64,000 nt of DNA from Marinobacter sp. (GCF_048266785.1 NZ_JBLWYX010000009.1:52325-116324); one strand, 5' to 3'. Positions 3,286 through 11,141 are shown, numbered from the stretch's first letter. Notes: generated from the letters alone by a model not told the origin. A program made the numbers and translations.

Positions 3286-4095
3286 ATGCTTTCAATATCA
3301 GCAAACGAACGCTACGTTTCGACCTCTGCCGGTGAGCTCTATGTAAAGAGCTGGACGCCTTCAGCAGATTCCAGTACTGAAACCACCGCGCCGATCGTGC
3401 TATTCCACGACTCGCTTGGAAGCGTGGAGCTTTGGCGGGGTTTTCCAGAACAACTGGCTCGCTCTCTCGGTCGACAGGTCATCGCCTATGACCGGCCCGG
3501 GTTCGGGCGCTCCTATCCCCGCACGGACATTCTGGAGGCGGACTTCATTATTAACGAAGCAACCGGACCCTTCACAGCCATACGCGGTGAACTTGGCATA
3601 GTAGATTTTATCGCCTTCGGGCATAGCGTAGGTGGCGCCATGGCAGCAGTGTGTGCCGCAACCTTCCCCGCTCACTGTGTTGCGCTGATTACAGAAGCGG
3701 CTCAGGCGTTCGTTGAAGATCTTACGGTTCGGGGTATCCGCGATGCAAAGCAGGTTTTCGCTCAAGACGGCCAGATAGATCGACTTAAAAAATACCACGG
3801 TGAAAAAGCGGACTGGGTTCTGCGCGCCTGGACGGGCACCTGGCTATCAGACAATTTTCAGCACTGGACCCTGAACGAAACACTATCCAGAGTGAGCTGC
3901 CCTGTTCTGGCCATTCATGGTGAGGACGACGAGTTTGGTTCCGCAGCGCATCCGGAACTTTATACATCACTTCCGGCTGGTCCTTGTGTTTTGGAGATGC
4001 TCAAAGAATGCGGGCATGTTCCGCACAGGGAAAAACCGGATGTTGTTGTGCGTCTGGTGAATGATTTTATTGAGGGGCACTTGAAGCCCTGTTAA
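3286..4095 (+). CDS. alpha/beta hydrolase (serine esterase, BPHL-like)
   Basis: GHSVGG nucleophile elbow, HGEDDEFG acid region, GHVPH catalytic His. Confidence 0.85.
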   Translation: MLSISANERYVSTSAGELYVKSWTPSADSSTETTAPIVLFHDSLGSVELWRGFPEQLARSLGRQVIAYDRPGFGRSYPRTDILEADFIINEATGPFTAIRGELGIVDFIAFGHSVGGAMAAVCAATFPAHCVALITEAAQAFVEDLTVRGIRDAKQVFAQDGQIDRLKKYHGEKADWVLRAWTGTWLSDNFQHWTLNETLSRVSCPVLAIHGEDDEFGSAAHPELYTSLPAGPCVLEMLKECGHVPHREKPDVVVRLVNDFIEGHLKPC

Positions 4096-4120: not shown

Positions 4121-5392
4121 TCAGCCTCGAAGCTTGTTCAGTATCTCCTCAGCAATATCCACCCTCACCTTCCCCATTTTAACCAGATCTTTTGCTACGG
4201 TTTCAATCTCCGCGCCAATCGCACCTGCCATCACCGCAATGTTCTTGGCGTGCAATGCCATGTGGCCTTTCTGGATTCCGGTGGTCGCCAGGGCTTTTAG
4301 GGCGGAAAAATTCTGAGCCAGGCCAACGGCCGCAATGGTGCGAGCTAGTTGATCTGCACTTTTCACCGCCATAATATCCAGCGCAATGCGTGCGGTCGGG
4401 TGGGATTTGGTGGCGCCTCCTATAAGCCCTACCGGCATGGGCATTTCGATCATGCCGGTCAGGTTGCCATCCCGGTCGGCTTCCCAATGGGTCAAAGAGC
4501 GATAGCGACCGGTTTGTGCCGCGTACGCGTGCGCCCCGGCTTCGACAGCACGGGTGTCGTTACCTGTAGCCAGAACCACGGCGCTGACTCCGTTCATAAC
4601 ACCTTTGTTGTGTGTTGCTGCACGGTACGGGTCGATGTCTGCAAACTCATAAGCGGCAAGAATGCCGTCCCGGACCGACTCGCCGCCGATAGCATCGAGT
4701 GTCCAGGTTGCACGGGCTCTCGCTAGCCTGCGATCCGCGAGATTCGAGAGAATGCGCAGGTAAGTTCGCCCACCGGTCCATTTTGCAATCAGCGGCGCTA
4801 CGGCCTCTGCCATGGAGTTCACGGCATTAGCGCCCATGGCATCGCGAGTGTCGACGATGAGGTGGGTGATCACCATGGTGCCCGTGTGGCTGCCTTCCAG
4901 AACGCGCACTTCCACCTCACGAAATCCGCCCCCGTGCTTGAGCAGAACCGGATCGGTTTCGTCGCAAATCTGTTTGATGTCCGCTTTGTGCTCAAGAATC
5001 TGCAGGCGCGCAAACTCCGGGTTTGGCACATCAACCAATTGCACCTGGGCGATCATCAGCGAGCCCGACATGGAGGTGATAAAACCTCCGGAATTCCGGC
5101 ACTGGCGCGCAGCGTTGCAGACTGCGGCGACCACCGACGATTCCTCTGTGGCCATCGGAATCAATGTGTCCTGCTGATCCACCACCATGTTGGTGGCAAC
5201 ACCAATGGGAATATTCATGGTGCCAATGGCGTTCTCGATCATCGAATCTGCGATCTCGCCGGTCAGGTTGCCGGTGTTGCCCATGTGATTGGCAACATCC
5301 GGGTTGAGGCCGGCCATTTCGATGACTTTCTCCAGGCGCTTGGCCATGGAGAGGTTATGAAATCCGGAAATACGGGAACTTGGGGTAGACAT
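4121..5392 (-). CDS. mvaA: Class II hydroxymethylglutaryl-CoA reductase (degradative-type, NAD(H)-linked)
   Basis: ENAIG, PMATEESSVVAA, DAMGAN, THNKGVMNG, GNDTRAVEAG and IQKGHMALH motifs, with catalytic Glu/Lys/Asp/His positions recognisable. Confidence 0.92.
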   Translation of the reverse strand: MSTPSSRISGFHNLSMAKRLEKVIEMAGLNPDVANHMGNTGNLTGEIADSMIENAIGTMNIPIGVATNMVVDQQDTLIPMATEESSVVAAVCNAARQCRNSGGFITSMSGSLMIAQVQLVDVPNPEFARLQILEHKADIKQICDETDPVLLKHGGGFREVEVRVLEGSHTGTMVITHLIVDTRDAMGANAVNSMAEAVAPLIAKWTGGRTYLRILSNLADRRLARARATWTLDAIGGESVRDGILAAYEFADIDPYRAATHNKGVMNGVSAVVLATGNDTRAVEAGAHAYAAQTGRYRSLTHWEADRDGNLTGMIEMPMPVGLIGGATKSHPTARIALDIMAVKSADQLARTIAAVGLAQNFSALKALATTGIQKGHMALHAKNIAVMAGAIGAEIETVAKDLVKMGKVRVDIAEEILNKLRG

Positions 5393-5417
5393 GGAATCAA
5401 TCTCCGCGATTAAGGAA

Positions 5418-6740
5418 TCAGGAAACCAGACGCTGGGACAGCTGATTTGGCAGCCAGGTCACCAGGTCCGGGAACAACATGAACAGAATCAGTGCCATTA
5501 TCTGCAGTACGAGGAACGGCAGGATTGCGCGATACACGGTCTCCATTCCTATACCTGGCGGCAGTACGCCTTTGATGTAGAAAAGGGTGTAACCGAATGG
5601 CGGCGTTATGTACGCCATTTGTGCGGTAATCAGGAACAGCACACCAAACCACACCGGATCAAAGCCAAAGGCAGAGATGATTGGCATGAACACAGGTACA
5701 CACAGCAGAATGATGCCAATCTCATCCAGGAACAGGCCCAGCAGAACGAGAATGCCCATCATCGAAAGCAGCACCAGCCAGCGGTTAACCTCGAGGTTTT
5801 CGATAAACATCAACAGTGAATCGGCGCCACCGGTTCCGGTGAATATCGAGACAAAGATCTTGGCACCGATGGTGATCCACATAATCATCGTTGTTACGCG
5901 GAGCGTATCCATGGCCGCATCGCTGAGATTTGCAGTGGTGAACTGGCCCTGCAGCATTGCCGACAGCATAGCCCCCACTACCCCAACCGCTGCGGCTTCC
6001 GTCGGCGTGGCGATTCCGGCGTAGATGCTGCCCAGAACACTGAACACAATCAGAGTGGGCAAGAACAGAGATTTGAGTGACCCGAACATCTCGAGCCAGC
6101 CTATTTCGATGTTGTCCGGAGCAGGCGCAAGGCTGGGTTTAAGCATGGTGCGGATCACTACGTAACTCACGTAAAGACCGGATAACACCATGCCCGGCAC
6201 TATCCCGGCGGCAAACATTTTGCCTACGGATATCTGCGCCGTAGCGGCGTAGACGATGGTGATTATCGAAGGTGGAATCAGAATGCCCAGAGTGCCGCCG
6301 GCACAGATTACTCCCAGTGCCAGCTTCTCATCATAGCCACGACGCAGCATGGACGGTAGCGCAAGAATCCCCATGGCGGCGACTGCAGCCCCAACGATGC
6401 CGGTCATGGCGGCCATCACGGTGCAAATGGCTATAGTCCCGACTGCAAGGCCACCGGGCAGACGCCGGAACCAGAGCTCCATCGCTTTGTACAAGGCTTC
6501 GATAATTCCGGAACGCTGAAGAATGCTGGCCATCAGCACGTAGAGAGGAATTGCAAGCAACACATCAGACGTCATGACGTCGTAGGTCTGTAAAACCGTC
6601 AGCACCAGTGCGTCCAGCCCCCACAACAAAATGGTGAACAACACGGCAAGCGAGATCAGCACAAAGGCGAGGGGCATGCCACTCAACAACAGGAGCAGGA
6701 GCGAAAAAAACATGGCGGAGAAAACAAGTGTGGAGCTCAT
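5418..6740 (-). CDS. dctM: TRAP transporter large permease (DctM)
   Basis: 440 aa, highly hydrophobic; GGTLGILIPPS, ATPTEAAAVG, ITPPFG. Confidence 0.92.
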   Translation of the reverse strand: MSSTLVFSAMFFSLLLLLLSGMPLAFVLISLAVLFTILLWGLDALVLTVLQTYDVMTSDVLLAIPLYVLMASILQRSGIIEALYKAMELWFRRLPGGLAVGTIAICTVMAAMTGIVGAAVAAMGILALPSMLRRGYDEKLALGVICAGGTLGILIPPSIITIVYAATAQISVGKMFAAGIVPGMVLSGLYVSYVVIRTMLKPSLAPAPDNIEIGWLEMFGSLKSLFLPTLIVFSVLGSIYAGIATPTEAAAVGVVGAMLSAMLQGQFTTANLSDAAMDTLRVTTMIMWITIGAKIFVSIFTGTGGADSLLMFIENLEVNRWLVLLSMMGILVLLGLFLDEIGIILLCVPVFMPIISAFGFDPVWFGVLFLITAQMAYITPPFGYTLFYIKGVLPPGIGMETVYRAILPFLVLQIMALILFMLFPDLVTWLPNQLSQRLVS

Positions 6741-7252
6741 GCTCTTGCCTCTTCGCGACCGCCGATACGTTGAATTGCGGTAAGCAACTCAGCGATGGAC
6801 TGAAGCAGCAGCAGGCTGAATGCCACCGGTATTACAGTCTTCACAGGCCAGATAGCCGGGTTCCAGGATGAAAACGAGGTTTCGCCGGAATCGATGGAGT
6901 TTTGAGCGATTGGAATGCTCTGATAGATAAGAATGCAACTGATCAACACAATCACGGCGTAAATGCCTGTGTCTGCGATCGCTGCTATACGTGGTGACAA
7001 TTTGCTATACAGAATGTCGACGTTCACATGGCCGGCGGTATGCAAAAAATGGGGCCCAGCGAGTAGAAAGTAAGGGCCGAGCAGCAGAGTTGATAACTCC
7101 AGTGCCCAGATCGTTGGCGCATCAAAAAAATAACGAGCCACGACTTCATAGGAAATAACGGCGACCATTATGAAAACCAGCGAAGACGCGGCAATGGCCA
7201 GCCAACGGTTCACCTGCGTAACAGTTTGGCAGTAGCCGTCAAGAATCTGCAT
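6737..7252 (-). CDS. dctQ: TRAP transporter small permease (DctQ)
   Basis: 4 TM; YEVVARYFFDAPTIW and GHVNVDILY motifs; overlaps dctM start by 4 bp. Confidence 0.9.
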   Translation of the reverse strand: MQILDGYCQTVTQVNRWLAIAASSLVFIMVAVISYEVVARYFFDAPTIWALELSTLLLGPYFLLAGPHFLHTAGHVNVDILYSKLSPRIAAIADTGIYAVIVLISCILIYQSIPIAQNSIDSGETSFSSWNPAIWPVKTVIPVAFSLLLLQSIAELLTAIQRIGGREEARA

Positions 7253-7276
7253 AAGGAAGCCTCAAATGGAGGGAGC

Positions 7277-7301
7277 ATCAGCCCGGCTGATCCGGGCTGA
7301 T
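7277..7301. other. Intercistronic stem-loop between dctP and dctQ
   Basis: Perfect 10-bp inverted repeat ATCAGCCCGG-ctgat-CCGGGCTGAT; the position is typical of hairpins that stabilise SBP mRNA (function inferred). Confidence 0.6.
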
Positions 7302-7324
7302 CAAAGCACATCTGATCTGGAGCG

Positions 7325-8380
7325 CTACTTAATAAGGCCCAGTTCCTTCATGAAGTCGATCTGACTTTGCAGTACTTTGTTGGCGAGTTCATCATCGCCT
7401 GCTGCTTCCTTCCAGGCTTCCATGGCGGTTGGGCGGGCACTGGCTATCACAGCCGGGTCAAGATGGATTATTTCAGCACCCTGCTCCTGGAACTTTTTCA
7501 GTGCTATCGCATCCTGCGCAATAATGTGTTGCCGCAGCGAACCCGAGATTTCCCTCGCGGACACTTCAAGAGCCGCTTTGTAGGAGTCTGGCAGCTTGTC
7601 GTAGGCTCTCTGGTTTGCCACATAGCTGGTCGCGGTCGTGGGCTGATGGAAGCCAGGCACAATGACGTACTTGGCCACTTCTCCCAGGCCTGCTTCCAGG
7701 TTGGCAGTCAGATCACCCCGGTCTGCAAAATCGATCACGCCCTTTTCAAGCGCCTGGTATACCTCGGCAGTCGGGAGTGGCGTAACGGCAACACCAAATT
7801 TGCTCATCACTGTGCTGGCAAGTCCGACAAAACGGCCTTTCTTGCCTTTTACATCATCAGGCTTGTTTATCGGGAATTTTGAGTGGATCGGCTCTTGGCC
7901 ATAAACGGTGGGAGCAATGTAAAAGAGCCCTGCCTGGGCGTAAGCTTCCCTCGCAAATTCCAGACCGCCTTTTTCGTAAAACCAGGCTTCATACTGGTCC
8001 GACTCGGGAAAACCAAAAGGAATCGTGCTGGTGAAAGCAAATGTTGGGATAGCACCCGCTTTATACCCGTCGAAGGTCTTCATCATTTCAAAAGCACCGC
8101 CCCGAACCGCTTCAAACGCTTGTGCTGACGGAGCCAGCTGGCCGCCGCCGAACAAACGGATGGTGAACTTGCCATCGGTAAGTTGGGAAACTCGCTCCAC
8201 AAACTTCTTCTCGTATTCGTAGGGTGTTGTGCCAGCATCCCAGAGGGCCTGCATGCGCCAGTTTACGTTAGGCTGTTCTGCTGCCAGGGTAACGCCGGAA
8301 GCAAGCGCCGCCGCTACTATAACGCCGCTTATCGTGCGCCGGATGTAACCATGAGCCTTGGGTTTTATGTGCAGTTTCAT
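7325..8380 (-). CDS. dctP: TRAP substrate-binding protein (DctP, monocarboxylate/2-oxoacid-binding type)
   Basis: Probable start is ATG at 8380 after GGAGAG (the ORF track extends to 8482). Signal peptide, WRMQALW, GGGQLAP, KGKKGRF (conserved Arg), EVYQALEKGVID. Confidence 0.9.
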   Translation of the reverse strand: MKLHIKPKAHGYIRRTISGVIVAAALASGVTLAAEQPNVNWRMQALWDAGTTPYEYEKKFVERVSQLTDGKFTIRLFGGGQLAPSAQAFEAVRGGAFEMMKTFDGYKAGAIPTFAFTSTIPFGFPESDQYEAWFYEKGGLEFAREAYAQAGLFYIAPTVYGQEPIHSKFPINKPDDVKGKKGRFVGLASTVMSKFGVAVTPLPTAEVYQALEKGVIDFADRGDLTANLEAGLGEVAKYVIVPGFHQPTTATSYVANQRAYDKLPDSYKAALEVSAREISGSLRQHIIAQDAIALKKFQEQGAEIIHLDPAVIASARPTAMEAWKEAAGDDELANKVLQSQIDFMKELGLIK

Positions 8381-8512
8381 CTCGCTCTCCAATTTTGTTT
8401 TTATGTACTCATTGACGTTATTCGCCAAAAAATCCACCGCATTATTTTGTTTAGTGTTGCCTGTACAAACTAGGCCAGACAATTAGAATCAACAAGGGAC
8501 AGTTAGCCGATG

Positions 8513-8548
8513 TGTACCACGGACTGTACCAGTGTGATAGCTGGTACA
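8513..8548. promoter_or_regulatory. Putative MocR-type operator: two direct repeats plus one inverted repeat
   Basis: TGTACCA at 8513-8519 and 8525-8531, TGGTACA at 8542-8548, between the divergent dctP and mocR-like genes. Confidence 0.6.
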
Positions 8549-8568
8549 CTTTTAAGGTTGATATAAAA

Positions 8569-9945
8569 GTGAGCATTTCTCGCGGACAACAAATTGCAGA
8601 CAGCCTGATTCAGCAAATTGAGTCTGGCCGGTTACTTCCAGGTGCCCGTTTGCCTCCCATACGTGTAGCGGCCGAAGGTCATGGGGTTTCCAAGAATACC
8701 GTTACCGATGCCTACGACCGGTTGGTTGCAACCGGCTACATTCACCCTCGTCGCGGTTCCGGGTTCTATGTACAGTCGGCGAGCTTTGCCCCGTCCATTT
8801 CCCGTTCCGAACATGTGATCGAGGCAGTAGATGTGGTGTCTTTATTGCGGGAACAACTCAACCAGCACTACGAAGTGCGTGCCGGCGATGGGCGGCTGCC
8901 CGCCACCTGGATGGAAAGCTCCGAAATTGGCAGGTATCTGAAGCGCACTTCCAACGCCACCGATTATTCTGATGATTTTGAATATGGTCGGCCACAGGGC
9001 CTTGAGGTACTGCGGGAGGATGTGGCCCGGGCTTTGAACGACCGATCGATCAACACCAGCCCGGACCAGGTGTTGATGACCTTTGGCGCAAATCATGCTC
9101 TGGACCTGATTGTTCGGCATTTTGTGCAGGCGGGCGATACGGTTCTCGTCGAAACACCGGGCTACTACCCGATGTTCAGCAAACTGAAGCTCCAAAAAGC
9201 GAAAGTTGTGGGCGTAAACCGGCAATCGGACGGACCGGATCTGGACATGCTGGAAGAGAAAATCCGTGCCCACAGGCCCAAGTTGTTTTTCGTACAGCCA
9301 ATGGCCCATAACCCGACCGGGACGTCCATGTCGCTGCAAAAGATGCACCGGTTGCTTACTTTGGCAGAAAAGTACGACCTGGTGATCATCGAAGATGACC
9401 CTTTCGCTGACATTCTGCCGAAAGCGACACCACACCTTGCGTCACTGGACGCACTCAACCGGGTTATCTACGTGGGTACGTTTTCAAAAACCCTGTCAGC
9501 GAGCTTGCGTTGTGGCTATATCGCGGCGAGTCCGGAACTTATCGCGTCGCTGACAGATATCAAAATGCTGACGGTAGTAAGCAGTTCGGGTATTACCGAG
9601 CGACTGGTTCATGAAATGATTGTTCGCGGGCGTTATCGCCGACACTTGAAACGTCTCAGAGACAGGGTTGTCAATGCCAGTATTGACGCCGTATCTGCCC
9701 TGCACGGGATAGGGCTTGACCGGGTGGAAAGCCCTACCGGAGGCTATTACATCTGGTGCCCGCTGCCCGAGGGTGTCGATTCCATGGAACTGACCGTTCA
9801 GGCTGCGCGGCAAGGCATCTTCCTTGCGCCGAGCCGGCTATTCGAGCTGACCAGCAGCGCAGGAAACGAAGCGCTGCGGGTCAATATTGCCCACGCCAAT
9901 AATCATAAGTTCCTGAACTTCATGAAAGGCGCACTGGGTATTTAA
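8569..9945 (+). CDS. MocR/GabR family regulator (GntR wHTH plus PLP aminotransferase-like domain)
   Basis: PGARLPPIR, VSKNTVTDAYDRL and RRGSGFYV wHTH; HNPTG, IIEDD and TFSKTL (PLP Lys). Probable start is GTG at 8569, in frame with ORF 8512. Confidence 0.92.
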   Translation: MSISRGQQIADSLIQQIESGRLLPGARLPPIRVAAEGHGVSKNTVTDAYDRLVATGYIHPRRGSGFYVQSASFAPSISRSEHVIEAVDVVSLLREQLNQHYEVRAGDGRLPATWMESSEIGRYLKRTSNATDYSDDFEYGRPQGLEVLREDVARALNDRSINTSPDQVLMTFGANHALDLIVRHFVQAGDTVLVETPGYYPMFSKLKLQKAKVVGVNRQSDGPDLDMLEEKIRAHRPKLFFVQPMAHNPTGTSMSLQKMHRLLTLAEKYDLVIIEDDPFADILPKATPHLASLDALNRVIYVGTFSKTLSASLRCGYIAASPELIASLTDIKMLTVVSSSGITERLVHEMIVRGRYRRHLKRLRDRVVNASIDAVSALHGIGLDRVESPTGGYYIWCPLPEGVDSMELTVQAARQGIFLAPSRLFELTSSAGNEALRVNIAHANNHKFLNFMKGALGI

Positions 9946-9951
9946 TATGGA

Positions 9952-10569
9952 TCAGGTTGTTTCATTAGCCTTGATGATTTTGGCCTGATGTTCCTCAACC
10001 AGTTCTTCCAGGCTCATGTACTCGCACTCTTTAGTAGCGATAAAGCTGTCTGCGGAGTCAATCAATATGTTGTCATCCCTCATGAACCTGCGACCGAGTA
10101 GCACTGGGTAGGAAAAGTTGCCGCGATCTGTCAATGAGAACTGGGTTTTGTGGCTGGTGCCGGAAATGCAGAAATCCATGATCACTACGTAGCGTCTCTG
10201 TGATGGCGCACCTTTGCGCTTTATGAGGACAGTGCGCTCTACCGGCCGCTCAAGCTCAAGAATGATTTCTTCATGGTCAATGTCGCCTTCCGACGGTTGG
10301 TCCTTGTGATCCGCCAGCGGAATCTGGAACTTCACCCATTTCTGGTCATCCTTCTTGAATCCCTCCACGTTAACGGCGTGCAGAGATGAGGTTTTTGCGC
10401 CGGTGTCCAATCGCGCTTTAAGCCTCAGGCCCGTATCGTTCATCACAACCCACTCTACGAAGCCGAGCGTCTCGGGAACCGAGGCCTGGTTTTCTGGCGC
10501 TGTTTCTGCCAATGCTGCTGTTGGGAAAATGAGCGCCGTAGCCAGTGAAAAAGGGATCAGAAACTTCAT
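9952..10569 (-). CDS. Secreted retropepsin-like aspartic peptidase ('ATP-dependent zinc protease'/RimK-associated family)
   Basis: Signal peptide; KARLDTGAKTSSL, FSLTDR, YPVLLGRRF. Confidence 0.85.
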   Translation of the reverse strand: MKFLIPFSLATALIFPTAALAETAPENQASVPETLGFVEWVVMNDTGLRLKARLDTGAKTSSLHAVNVEGFKKDDQKWVKFQIPLADHKDQPSEGDIDHEEIILELERPVERTVLIKRKGAPSQRRYVVIMDFCISGTSHKTQFSLTDRGNFSYPVLLGRRFMRDDNILIDSADSFIATKECEYMSLEELVEEHQAKIIKANETT

Positions 10570-11141
10570 TCAATTCCTCCTGCAAATTCCTGTAAATCAG
10601 GGAAAAATGATAAAAAATGTGCTTCAAGCTCGGAACGCAATGGGCGTATTTCGTGAATAATTCCGGCAAACGAATTCTGGAACCGAATGCGCGCTGCGAC
10701 CCTGTCCAGCGCATAACCGATGTTGTTGAGATCGCGGTAGGATCCAAACCAATCGTGAGAAACCATGTGTCGTGTGGTTCTGCTCATATCAGGCGTCATT
10801 AATGCTTCGTTGTCCTGCAGCTCCGAATAGACCCTGGTGATAAACGTGCTTTGGTCGGCATCGGTAAATTCGGTCCAGTGCTGGAGAAGAAAATGGTCGT
10901 ACAAGACATCCAGCGCAACGCCCGCGAACTTACGGCGTTGGCCTGAGAATAGCCGTTTGCTGGCCAGAACATCCGGATGCTTGTCGGTGTAACTGTCTAC
11001 CGCCAGATGGTGGCGAACGCCCAGCCTTACGGAATATGGAAGTGCTGCGAGATCCACGCCACGGGTAAAATCGCCCAGAAGGCTACCGACTCGTGCCTCG
11101 GGCGAGTCAGGAGCAAGAAACAGATGGGCAAGATGATTCAA
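10566..11141 (-). CDS. acpH: Acyl carrier protein phosphodiesterase
   Basis: MNHLAHLFL, GSLLGDF, HLAVDSYTD, LDVLYDHFL; TTG start. Confidence 0.9.
   Translation of the reverse strand: MNHLAHLFLAPDSPEARVGSLLGDFTRGVDLAALPYSVRLGVRHHLAVDSYTDKHPDVLASKRLFSGQRRKFAGVALDVLYDHFLLQHWTEFTDADQSTFITRVYSELQDNEALMTPDMSRTTRHMVSHDWFGSYRDLNNIGYALDRVAARIRFQNSFAGIIHEIRPLRSELEAHFLSFFPDLQEFAGGIE

Follow-up and report, generated by a model that had tools for sequence, protein, structure and literature searches.

The class II 3-hydroxy-3-methylglutaryl coenzyme A (HMG-CoA) reductase (HMGR) of Pseudomonas mevalonii oxidizes mevalonate to HMG-CoA for growth. Its catalytic residues are E83, K267, D283, and the flap-domain histidine H381, and D146 is the aspartate that favors NAD(H) over NADP(H). 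In this organism MvaT is said to be a regulator, and an inducible, high-affinity mevalonate transport activity, to which no gene was assigned, was reportedly described in the 1980s. The HMGR of Burkholderia cenocepacia reportedly favors the oxidative direction. Here we analyze a stretch of 64,000 nucleotides (nt) from Marinobacter sp. (GCF_048266785.1 NZ_JBLWYX010000009.1:52325-116324), called the window below. Positions 4121 to 9945 hold the genes of a tripartite ATP-independent periplasmic (TRAP) transporter, dctPQM, followed by a gene for a class II HMGR (hmgr) and preceded by a divergent gene for a regulator of the MocR/GabR subfamily (mocR). Judged by sequence comparisons, dctPQM-hmgr together with mocR is probably a mevalonate scavenging operon.

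The enzymes of Delftia, B. cenocepacia, P. mevalonii, and Ruegeria pomeroyi have been described as NADH-using HMG-CoA reductases in reports that do not discuss gene neighborhood or physiology. The supplement to Suvorova and Rodionov 2016 (PMC5320631) contains a MocR group, "Daci_0288," in which the regulator is listed with COG1257 (MvaA) and COG4663/4665/4664 (TRAP) in R. pomeroyi, Oceanicola batsensis, and Bordetella petrii, and with MvaA and two hypothetical proteins in Delftia. The main text of that paper mentions neither mevalonate nor HMG and proposes no function, ligand, or effector for the Daci_0288 regulon (PMC5320631). Because the supplementary table lists genes only, the module has been catalogued but not interpreted, and in a literature search we found no characterized transporter or regulator for it, R. 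pomeroyi SPOA0162-0167 included. The HMGR orthologs from this same MocR-linked module in Delftia (the neighbor of Daci_0288), B. petrii, and R. pomeroyi are experimentally real HMG-CoA/mevalonate enzymes.

The reductase and its metabolic context

The last gene of the operon, hmgr (mvaA-like; positions 4121 to 5392, minus strand), encodes 423 amino acids (aa) of a class II, NAD-type "degradative" reductase. The product matched PF00368 with 362 bits and TIGR00532 ("hydroxymethylglutaryl-CoA reductase, degradative") with 449 bits versus a cutoff of 260. Among solved structures the top match was the P. mevalonii enzyme (1QAX, E value of 4e-134), with residues 5 to 423 aligned on 4 to 427, flap His included. 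Delftia acidovorans 6DIO, entry 9V7Y, and B. cenocepacia 6P7K came next, the close homologs of the 6DIO/6P7K type having E values of 1e-127 to 1e-131, and the biosynthetic HMGR structures from Gram-positive bacteria scored about 130 bits lower. E84, K263, D279, and H377, the equivalents of P. mevalonii E83, K267, D283, and H381, were invariant in 76 orthologs. So were D147, the equivalent of the NAD-preference residue D146, and R257, S86, and N267 around the HMG site. The substrate-contact residues are identical to those of P. mevalonii. By these comparisons, the predicted protein has the full length and all catalytic residues of a class II "degradative" HMG-CoA reductase.

We searched the whole source genome (4.58 Mb, 99.8% complete) with profiles and found a single HMGR. 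Dxr and IspH scored above their cutoffs, which identifies the methylerythritol phosphate (MEP) pathway. Genome-wide there was no HMG-CoA synthase (the best TIGR01835 match had 38.8 bits versus a cutoff of 360) and no match to mevalonate kinase (TIGR00549) or diphosphomevalonate decarboxylase (TIGR01240). Because these three enzymes were not found, the HMGR cannot supply isoprenoid synthesis, nor is there a complete biosynthetic mevalonate (MVA) pathway elsewhere that could employ it. A preliminary description of the locus had stated that the window contains no other gene of the mevalonate pathway and had left the choice between the MEP and MVA pathways to a genome search; the statement extends to the entire genome, and the search gave the MEP pathway plus one HMGR.

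That description had also called for a search for HMG-CoA lyase. There is none in the window, and thus the adjacency of lyase to reductase that characterizes mvaAB is not seen at the Marinobacter locus. The genome does have a lyase on another contig (C11:121818-122717; 478 bits versus a cutoff of 246), the only one above the cutoff. It lies directly after a biotin-carboxylase subunit gene and ends a run of open reading frames (ORFs) that fits a liuABCDE-type cluster in gene order and sizes; within this run, profiles were applied to the carboxylase subunit and the lyase only. HMG-CoA, the oxidative product predicted for the HMGR, has a ready enzyme in the genome in this putative liu-type lyase.

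The transporter

Upstream of hmgr, consecutive genes on the same strand encode all three TRAP components: dctP, the solute-binding protein (7325 to 8380, minus strand; 351 aa; PF03480, 163 bits); dctQ, the small permease (6737 to 7252, minus strand; 171 aa; PF04290, 88 bits); and dctM, the large permease (5418 to 6740, minus strand; 440 aa; PF06808, 272 bits; TIGR00786, 317 bits versus a cutoff of 268). The genes are separated by 72 nt (dctP-dctQ) and 25 nt (dctM-hmgr), and dctQ and dctM overlap by 4 nt; these gap sizes are operon-like. With all five genes located and profiled against Pfam and NCBIfam, the earlier account, in which dctP-dctQ-dctM-mvaA lie on one strand with no gap above 72 bp and diverge from a MocR gene, is accurate. 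We moved the start of dctP from 8482 (ORF 7325 to 8482) to the ATG at 8380 because orthologs are about 351 aa long and this ATG, which has a GGAG ribosome-binding site upstream, yields exactly 351 aa.

The solved structure closest to DctP was the calcium-lactate binder TTHA0766 of Thermus (2ZZV, E value of 3.5e-59, over residues 45 to 384 of the long ORF), followed by ketoacid-, TakP-, and pyruvate-type binders. The N terminus carries an export signal with an RR pair and then AAEQP (MKLHIKPKAHGYIRRTISGVIVAAALASGVTLAA/EQP, read by eye). The carboxylate-binding arginine is R183 of the 351-aa protein, in GKKGRFVG; it aligns to "KLRV" of 2ZZV and was invariant in 80 orthologs. DctP therefore keeps this arginine and resembles the monocarboxylate binders, as had been proposed, its relatives being proteins that bind lactate, pyruvate, or 2-oxoacids. 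Y106 and D217/D220 of DctP are candidate equivalents of Tyr80 and Asp444, the lactate-contacting residues of the eLACCO1 structure.

TRAP systems are importers. In our literature search, no paper connected mevalonate with a TRAP transporter or another binding-protein importer, in agreement with the earlier remark that no mevalonate TRAP transporter has been characterized.

Conservation of the module

A scan for DctP with one genome per species gave 80 closest loci, all with at least 64% identity; genes in these loci were counted by tblastn with the proteins of the window. The loci span three classes: Gammaproteobacteria (Marinobacter, Halomonas/Vreelandella, Neptunomonas, Arhodomonas, and Aquisalimonas), Alphaproteobacteria (Roseibium/Stappia, Nitratireductor, Ferrovibrio, and others), and Betaproteobacteria (Hydrogenophaga, Comamonas, Caldimonas, and others). 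The closest were those of a Marinobacter metagenome-assembled genome (98% identity), M. maritimus (97%), and M. aromaticivorans (95%); M. maritimus CK47 and M. aromaticivorans D15-8P have this locus as well. HMGR adjoined the transporter on the same strand in 76 of the 80 loci, in the order dctPQM-hmgr in 64 (median gap, 40 nt) and hmgr-dctPQM in 12. With the reductase next to the transporter in so many orthologous DctP loci from three classes, this adjacency is far beyond chance. The remaining four loci comprise two too near a contig edge to judge, one that has decayed (L017), and one with DctP alone (L026). dctM was found in 77 loci, dctQ in 78, and a divergent MocR gene in 71.

Three of the loci without MocR (L028, L047, and L066) have a regulator with an XRE helix-turn-helix (HTH) and a cupin domain upstream of dctPQM-hmgr (positions 9370 to 10047 in L028, the copy on which Pfam was run). 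The same operon has thus acquired regulators from two unrelated families. An HMG-CoA lyase homolog was present in the immediate neighborhood of the module in 15 of the 80 loci, mostly directly downstream of HMGR; among them are M. zhejiangensis, Stappia, Nitratireductor, and Breoghania. The flanking genes were analyzed relative to the borders of the module, since antisense ORFs in GC-rich loci confound plain ORF clustering. Besides the lyase, no further gene recurred next to the module in the flanks of the 80 loci. In an HMGR tree (MAFFT and FastTree, midpoint rooted, all rows kept) there were two deep clades; one held the dctPQM-hmgr loci, and the other held the hmgr-dctPQM loci along with reductases whose neighbors are TctA-type transporters or CoA-transferases. 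Because the two gene orders fall in different deep clades, one TRAP family has been joined to both reductase lineages.

DctP and HMGR also come and go together within genera. Of 151 Marinobacter genomes, 18 had orthologs of both, always about 3 kb apart, and about 130 had neither; the exceptions were one genome with DctP only and two with HMGR only, one of which has an internal stop codon and the other a contig-end fragment in an 80%-complete genome. The 12 genomes of a Nitratireductor-like genus were evenly split, 6 with both genes and 6 with neither. The counts for the two genera are descriptive only, as related genomes are not independent.

Some Marinobacter copies are damaged. In the complete genome of M. 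salarius R9SW1 (CP007152.1; L062/G050), dctP, dctQ, and hmgr gave only fragmentary matches, and two in-frame TGA codons interrupt hmgr. In G087, hmgr has an internal TAA and there is no DctP ortholog. Four Marinobacter genomes (G006, G039, G087, and G116) have a second, distant HMGR homolog (46% identity) in an open frame of about 762 aa, a length suggestive of a fusion, perhaps of thiolase and HMGR like that of enterococcal MvaE; these strains possibly have a biosynthetic mevalonate pathway.

We also surveyed the module from the side of the reductase. A close HMGR occurred in only 10 of 400 evenly drawn Pseudomonadota genomes, and for nine of these we examined 20 kb of context. MocR was divergent from HMGR in eight of the nine, and the present DctP family was found in none of these contexts. 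The importers beside HMGR were a small protein plus a TctA-family permease in four contexts, a Peripla_BP_6 binding protein of the ATP-binding cassette (ABC) type in one, and a different TRAP transporter in one; lyase occurred in three loci, family III CoA-transferase in three, and enoyl-CoA hydratase in two. MocR plus HMGR is therefore the constant core, and the importer family is interchangeable, as fits an enzyme whose substrate comes from outside.

Two arrangements in this survey deserve separate mention. In L100, L102, L103, and L105, MocR-HMGR is followed by a protein of 141 to 169 aa with no Pfam match and the TctA-family permease, and no gene for a TctC-type binding protein was seen between or right after those genes; these two proteins may form a two-component importer of the same substrate. 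In three other loci (L099, 10669 to 13552; L104, 10700 to 12693; L101, 7161 to 9316), HMGR is followed by the family III CoA-transferase and enoyl-CoA hydratase, with or without lyase. This arrangement hints at a wider HMG-CoA-centered catabolic cluster, which perhaps also takes 3-hydroxy-3-methylglutarate or 3-methylglutaconate.

The regulator and the control region

The divergent mocR gene (8569 to 9945, plus strand) encodes 458 aa from the GTG at 8569, or 477 aa if started at 8512; GTG 8569 is probably the start. With the starts of dctP and mocR so revised, the divergent control region is 188 nt long (8381 to 8568). MocR combines PF00392 (GntR winged HTH) with PF00155 (fold-type-I aminotransferase class I/II domain). 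Its best NCBIfam match was PdxR-like, with 277 bits, under the cutoff of 320, and it fell below every NCBIfam equivalog cutoff. Its GTFSKTL motif aligns to the motif of the aminotransferase Schiff-base lysine, and that lysine (K326), D296, N267, R333, and R456 were invariant in 65 orthologs. The characterized effectors of MocR regulators (γ-aminobutyrate, taurine, ectoine-derived amines, and pyridoxal 5'-phosphate [PLP]) are amines or PLP itself (PMC5320631).

The control region contains TGTACCA at 8513 to 8519 and at 8525 to 8531, which form a direct repeat, and the inverted TGGTACA at 8542 to 8548. A promoter-like match on the plus strand at 8462 to 8489 did not score above shuffled sequences. 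In the orthologous intergenic regions, the spacing of the boxes (TGTAC/GTACA at x, x+19, and x+31) is kept across Marinobacter, Halomonas, and Arhodomonas, and some of the Ferrovibrio-type loci have a TGTAC-N14-GTACA pair. The boxes were not found in the intergenic regions of the Roseibium or Comamonadaceae loci, and thus the lineages differ in their operators. The three boxes are probably the sites from which MocR represses.

Flanking genes

Convergent with the operon is a gene for an alpha/beta hydrolase (3286 to 4095). We considered it as a mevalonolactone lactonase belonging to the module and rejected it, because it is convergent and is kept beside the operon only in the three closest Marinobacter loci. 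The other flanking genes, for a LysE/RhtB-type exporter, a RloA3-like peptidase, and AcpH, were likewise rejected as lineage specific. All of these genes are common only to the three closest relatives and therefore lie outside the unit. Directly downstream of mocR (9952 to 11141, minus strand), a gene for a retropepsin-like, RloA3-type aspartic peptidase (129 bits, under the cutoff of 210) overlaps the gene for AcpH (acyl carrier protein phosphodiesterase) by 4 nt; this pair is kept only in the closest Marinobacter relatives.

Proposed function and alternative explanations

We propose that periplasmic DctP would bind (R)-mevalonate through its carboxylate by means of R183, probably together with a cation, as in the lactate and pyruvate binders, and that DctQM would bring it into the cell. 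The cotranscribed, NAD-dependent HMGR would then act oxidatively (mevalonate + CoA + 2 NAD+ -> HMG-CoA + 2 NADH), and the unlinked LiuE-type lyase would convert HMG-CoA to acetyl-CoA and acetoacetate. MocR would bind the TGTACCA boxes and control both the operon and itself. The parts of this scheme that we infer are the ligand of DctP, the direction of the HMGR in vivo, and the regulation by MocR and its effector. The idea of mevalonate uptake with HMG-CoA passing into leucine catabolism, already put forward in the preliminary description, gains support from the affinity of the enzyme, the presence of the lyase, the MEP pathway without the other MVA genes, and the conserved linkage. Algae or archaea as the source of the mevalonate are speculation.

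Several points weigh against this proposal. The nearest characterized relative of DctP binds lactate, and the DctP sequence itself also allows a smaller hydroxy acid. Unlike P. mevalonii mvaAB, the Marinobacter operon contains no lyase; flux would depend on the liu lyase. The sensor domain of MocR keeps all of the PLP-binding residues and the known effectors are amines or PLP, whereas mevalonate is amine free. An amine-free substrate does not account for a MocR whose PLP site is intact. Either this regulator responds to an acid that lacks an amine, something that would be without precedent in the family, or it receives some other signal. Finally, the proposal calls for free mevalonate in seawater, for which we can point to no environmental source.

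The kinship of DctP to binders of lactate, pyruvate, and 2-oxoacids is what one would expect if the TRAP system imported some other small hydroxy- or oxo-monocarboxylate (lactate, 3-hydroxy-3-methylbutyrate, 3-hydroxyisobutyrate, or pantoate), with the reductase acting on that compound or serving a linked but distinct role. We consider this improbable: the DctP clade (at least 64% identity) is almost never without HMGR, the substrate-contact residues of the HMGR are invariant and identical to those of P. mevalonii, the orthologous enzymes act on HMG-CoA and mevalonate, the sole other recurrent neighbor is HMG-CoA lyase, and unrelated importer families take the place of the TRAP transporter next to HMGR. 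There is a slim chance that the true substrate or signal has an amino group, being either an amino-hydroxy acid or an amine that co-occurs with the substrate. Such a compound would suit the fully conserved PLP site of MocR, the standing of MocR as the most constant companion of HMGR (in 71 of the 80 loci and in 8 of the 9 randomly drawn genomes), and the effectors of the characterized MocRs (PMC5320631). However, no aminotransferase, deaminase, or other amine-handling gene recurred in the flanks of the 80 loci, the XRE-HTH plus cupin regulator replaces MocR before the same genes in some lineages, and the active site is that of a mevalonate/HMG-CoA enzyme.

The reaction itself is reversible, orthologs have been used reductively in engineered strains, and some loci elsewhere have the family III CoA-transferase and enoyl-CoA hydratase beside HMGR. 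The enzyme might thus work reductively, making mevalonate from leucine-derived HMG-CoA, or the importer might bring in 3-hydroxy-3-methylglutarate. Both variants are very unlikely here, as the genome has no mevalonate kinase or decarboxylase to use the mevalonate, TRAP systems are generally known to import, no CoA-transferase or ligase that could activate a dicarboxylate is present in the window, and DctP is of the monocarboxylate type. That a lactate-type TRAP transporter and an orphan HMGR are neighbors by accident is hardly credible. Although L017 and L026 have DctP without an intact HMGR, the linkage, seen in 76 of the 80 loci, takes two gene orders and spans three classes; co-occurrence is perfect in the 12 Nitratireductor-like genomes and near-perfect in the 151 Marinobacter genomes; and the gaps of 25 to 72 nt are operon-like.

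If the module does serve mevalonate scavenging, it offers the orphan HMGRs of Delftia, B. cenocepacia, B. petrii, and R. pomeroyi, all organisms that lack a mevalonate pathway, a testable role, the catabolism of imported mevalonate. The TRAP transporter would become the first bacterial mevalonate importer to be defined at the level of its genes, of use where engineered strains are to be fed mevalonate or to sense it, and DctP would be a ready scaffold for a mevalonate biosensor, given that the eLACCO lactate sensors are built on its closest relative. Were MocR to answer to an acid without an amine, the chemistry known for PLP-dependent transcription factors would be broadened. That the module is patchy and accessory (present in about one-eighth of the sampled Marinobacter species) suggests that free mevalonate serves as a niche carbon source in habitats of the sea and the soil. 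More tentatively, and with considerable doubt, one may imagine MocR as a natural factor responsive to mevalonate or a pathway intermediate, the first PLP-type MocR with an amine-free effector, and DctP as the first natural high-affinity mevalonate binder; together these would explain the orphan HMGRs of MEP bacteria such as Delftia, Burkholderia, and Ruegeria.

Comparison with known systems

As read here, the module varies the known mvaAB route of mevalonate catabolism, with an importer of uncharacterized specificity and an unexplained regulator. With P. mevalonii mvaAB it shares the reductase family, the catalytic residues, and the predicted route from mevalonate via HMG-CoA to acetyl-CoA and acetoacetate, and the mvaA-mvaB order is reproduced in the related loci that carry a lyase gene. 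Unlike mvaAB, the Marinobacter module has its lyase in the liu cluster on another contig, a TRAP importer that precedes the reductase, and a MocR as the regulator.

DctP shares the carboxylate arginine and the VID.AD segment with TTHA0766 of Thermus thermophilus (2ZZV) and the TakP/pyruvate/2-oxoacid clade. Unlike TTHA0766, the Marinobacter protein belongs to a separate clade that is tied to HMGR and not to lactate metabolism. MocR likewise has the features of the GabR-, PdxR-, and EhuR-type regulators, namely, the same two domains, the conserved PLP lysine, and an operator of direct plus inverted repeats in a divergent promoter region. In contrast to the characterized MocRs, it would belong to an amine-free pathway, so the chemistry of its effector would differ from that of every characterized member.

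The orphan HMGRs of D. acidovorans (6DIO), B. cenocepacia (6P7K), and R. pomeroyi are close homologs of the Marinobacter enzyme; they prefer NADH, and their hosts have been described as being without the rest of the mevalonate pathway. The studies of these enzymes are enzymological and do not treat gene neighborhood, transporter, or physiological role. The gene set of the Daci_0288 regulon is the same as that of the Marinobacter module.

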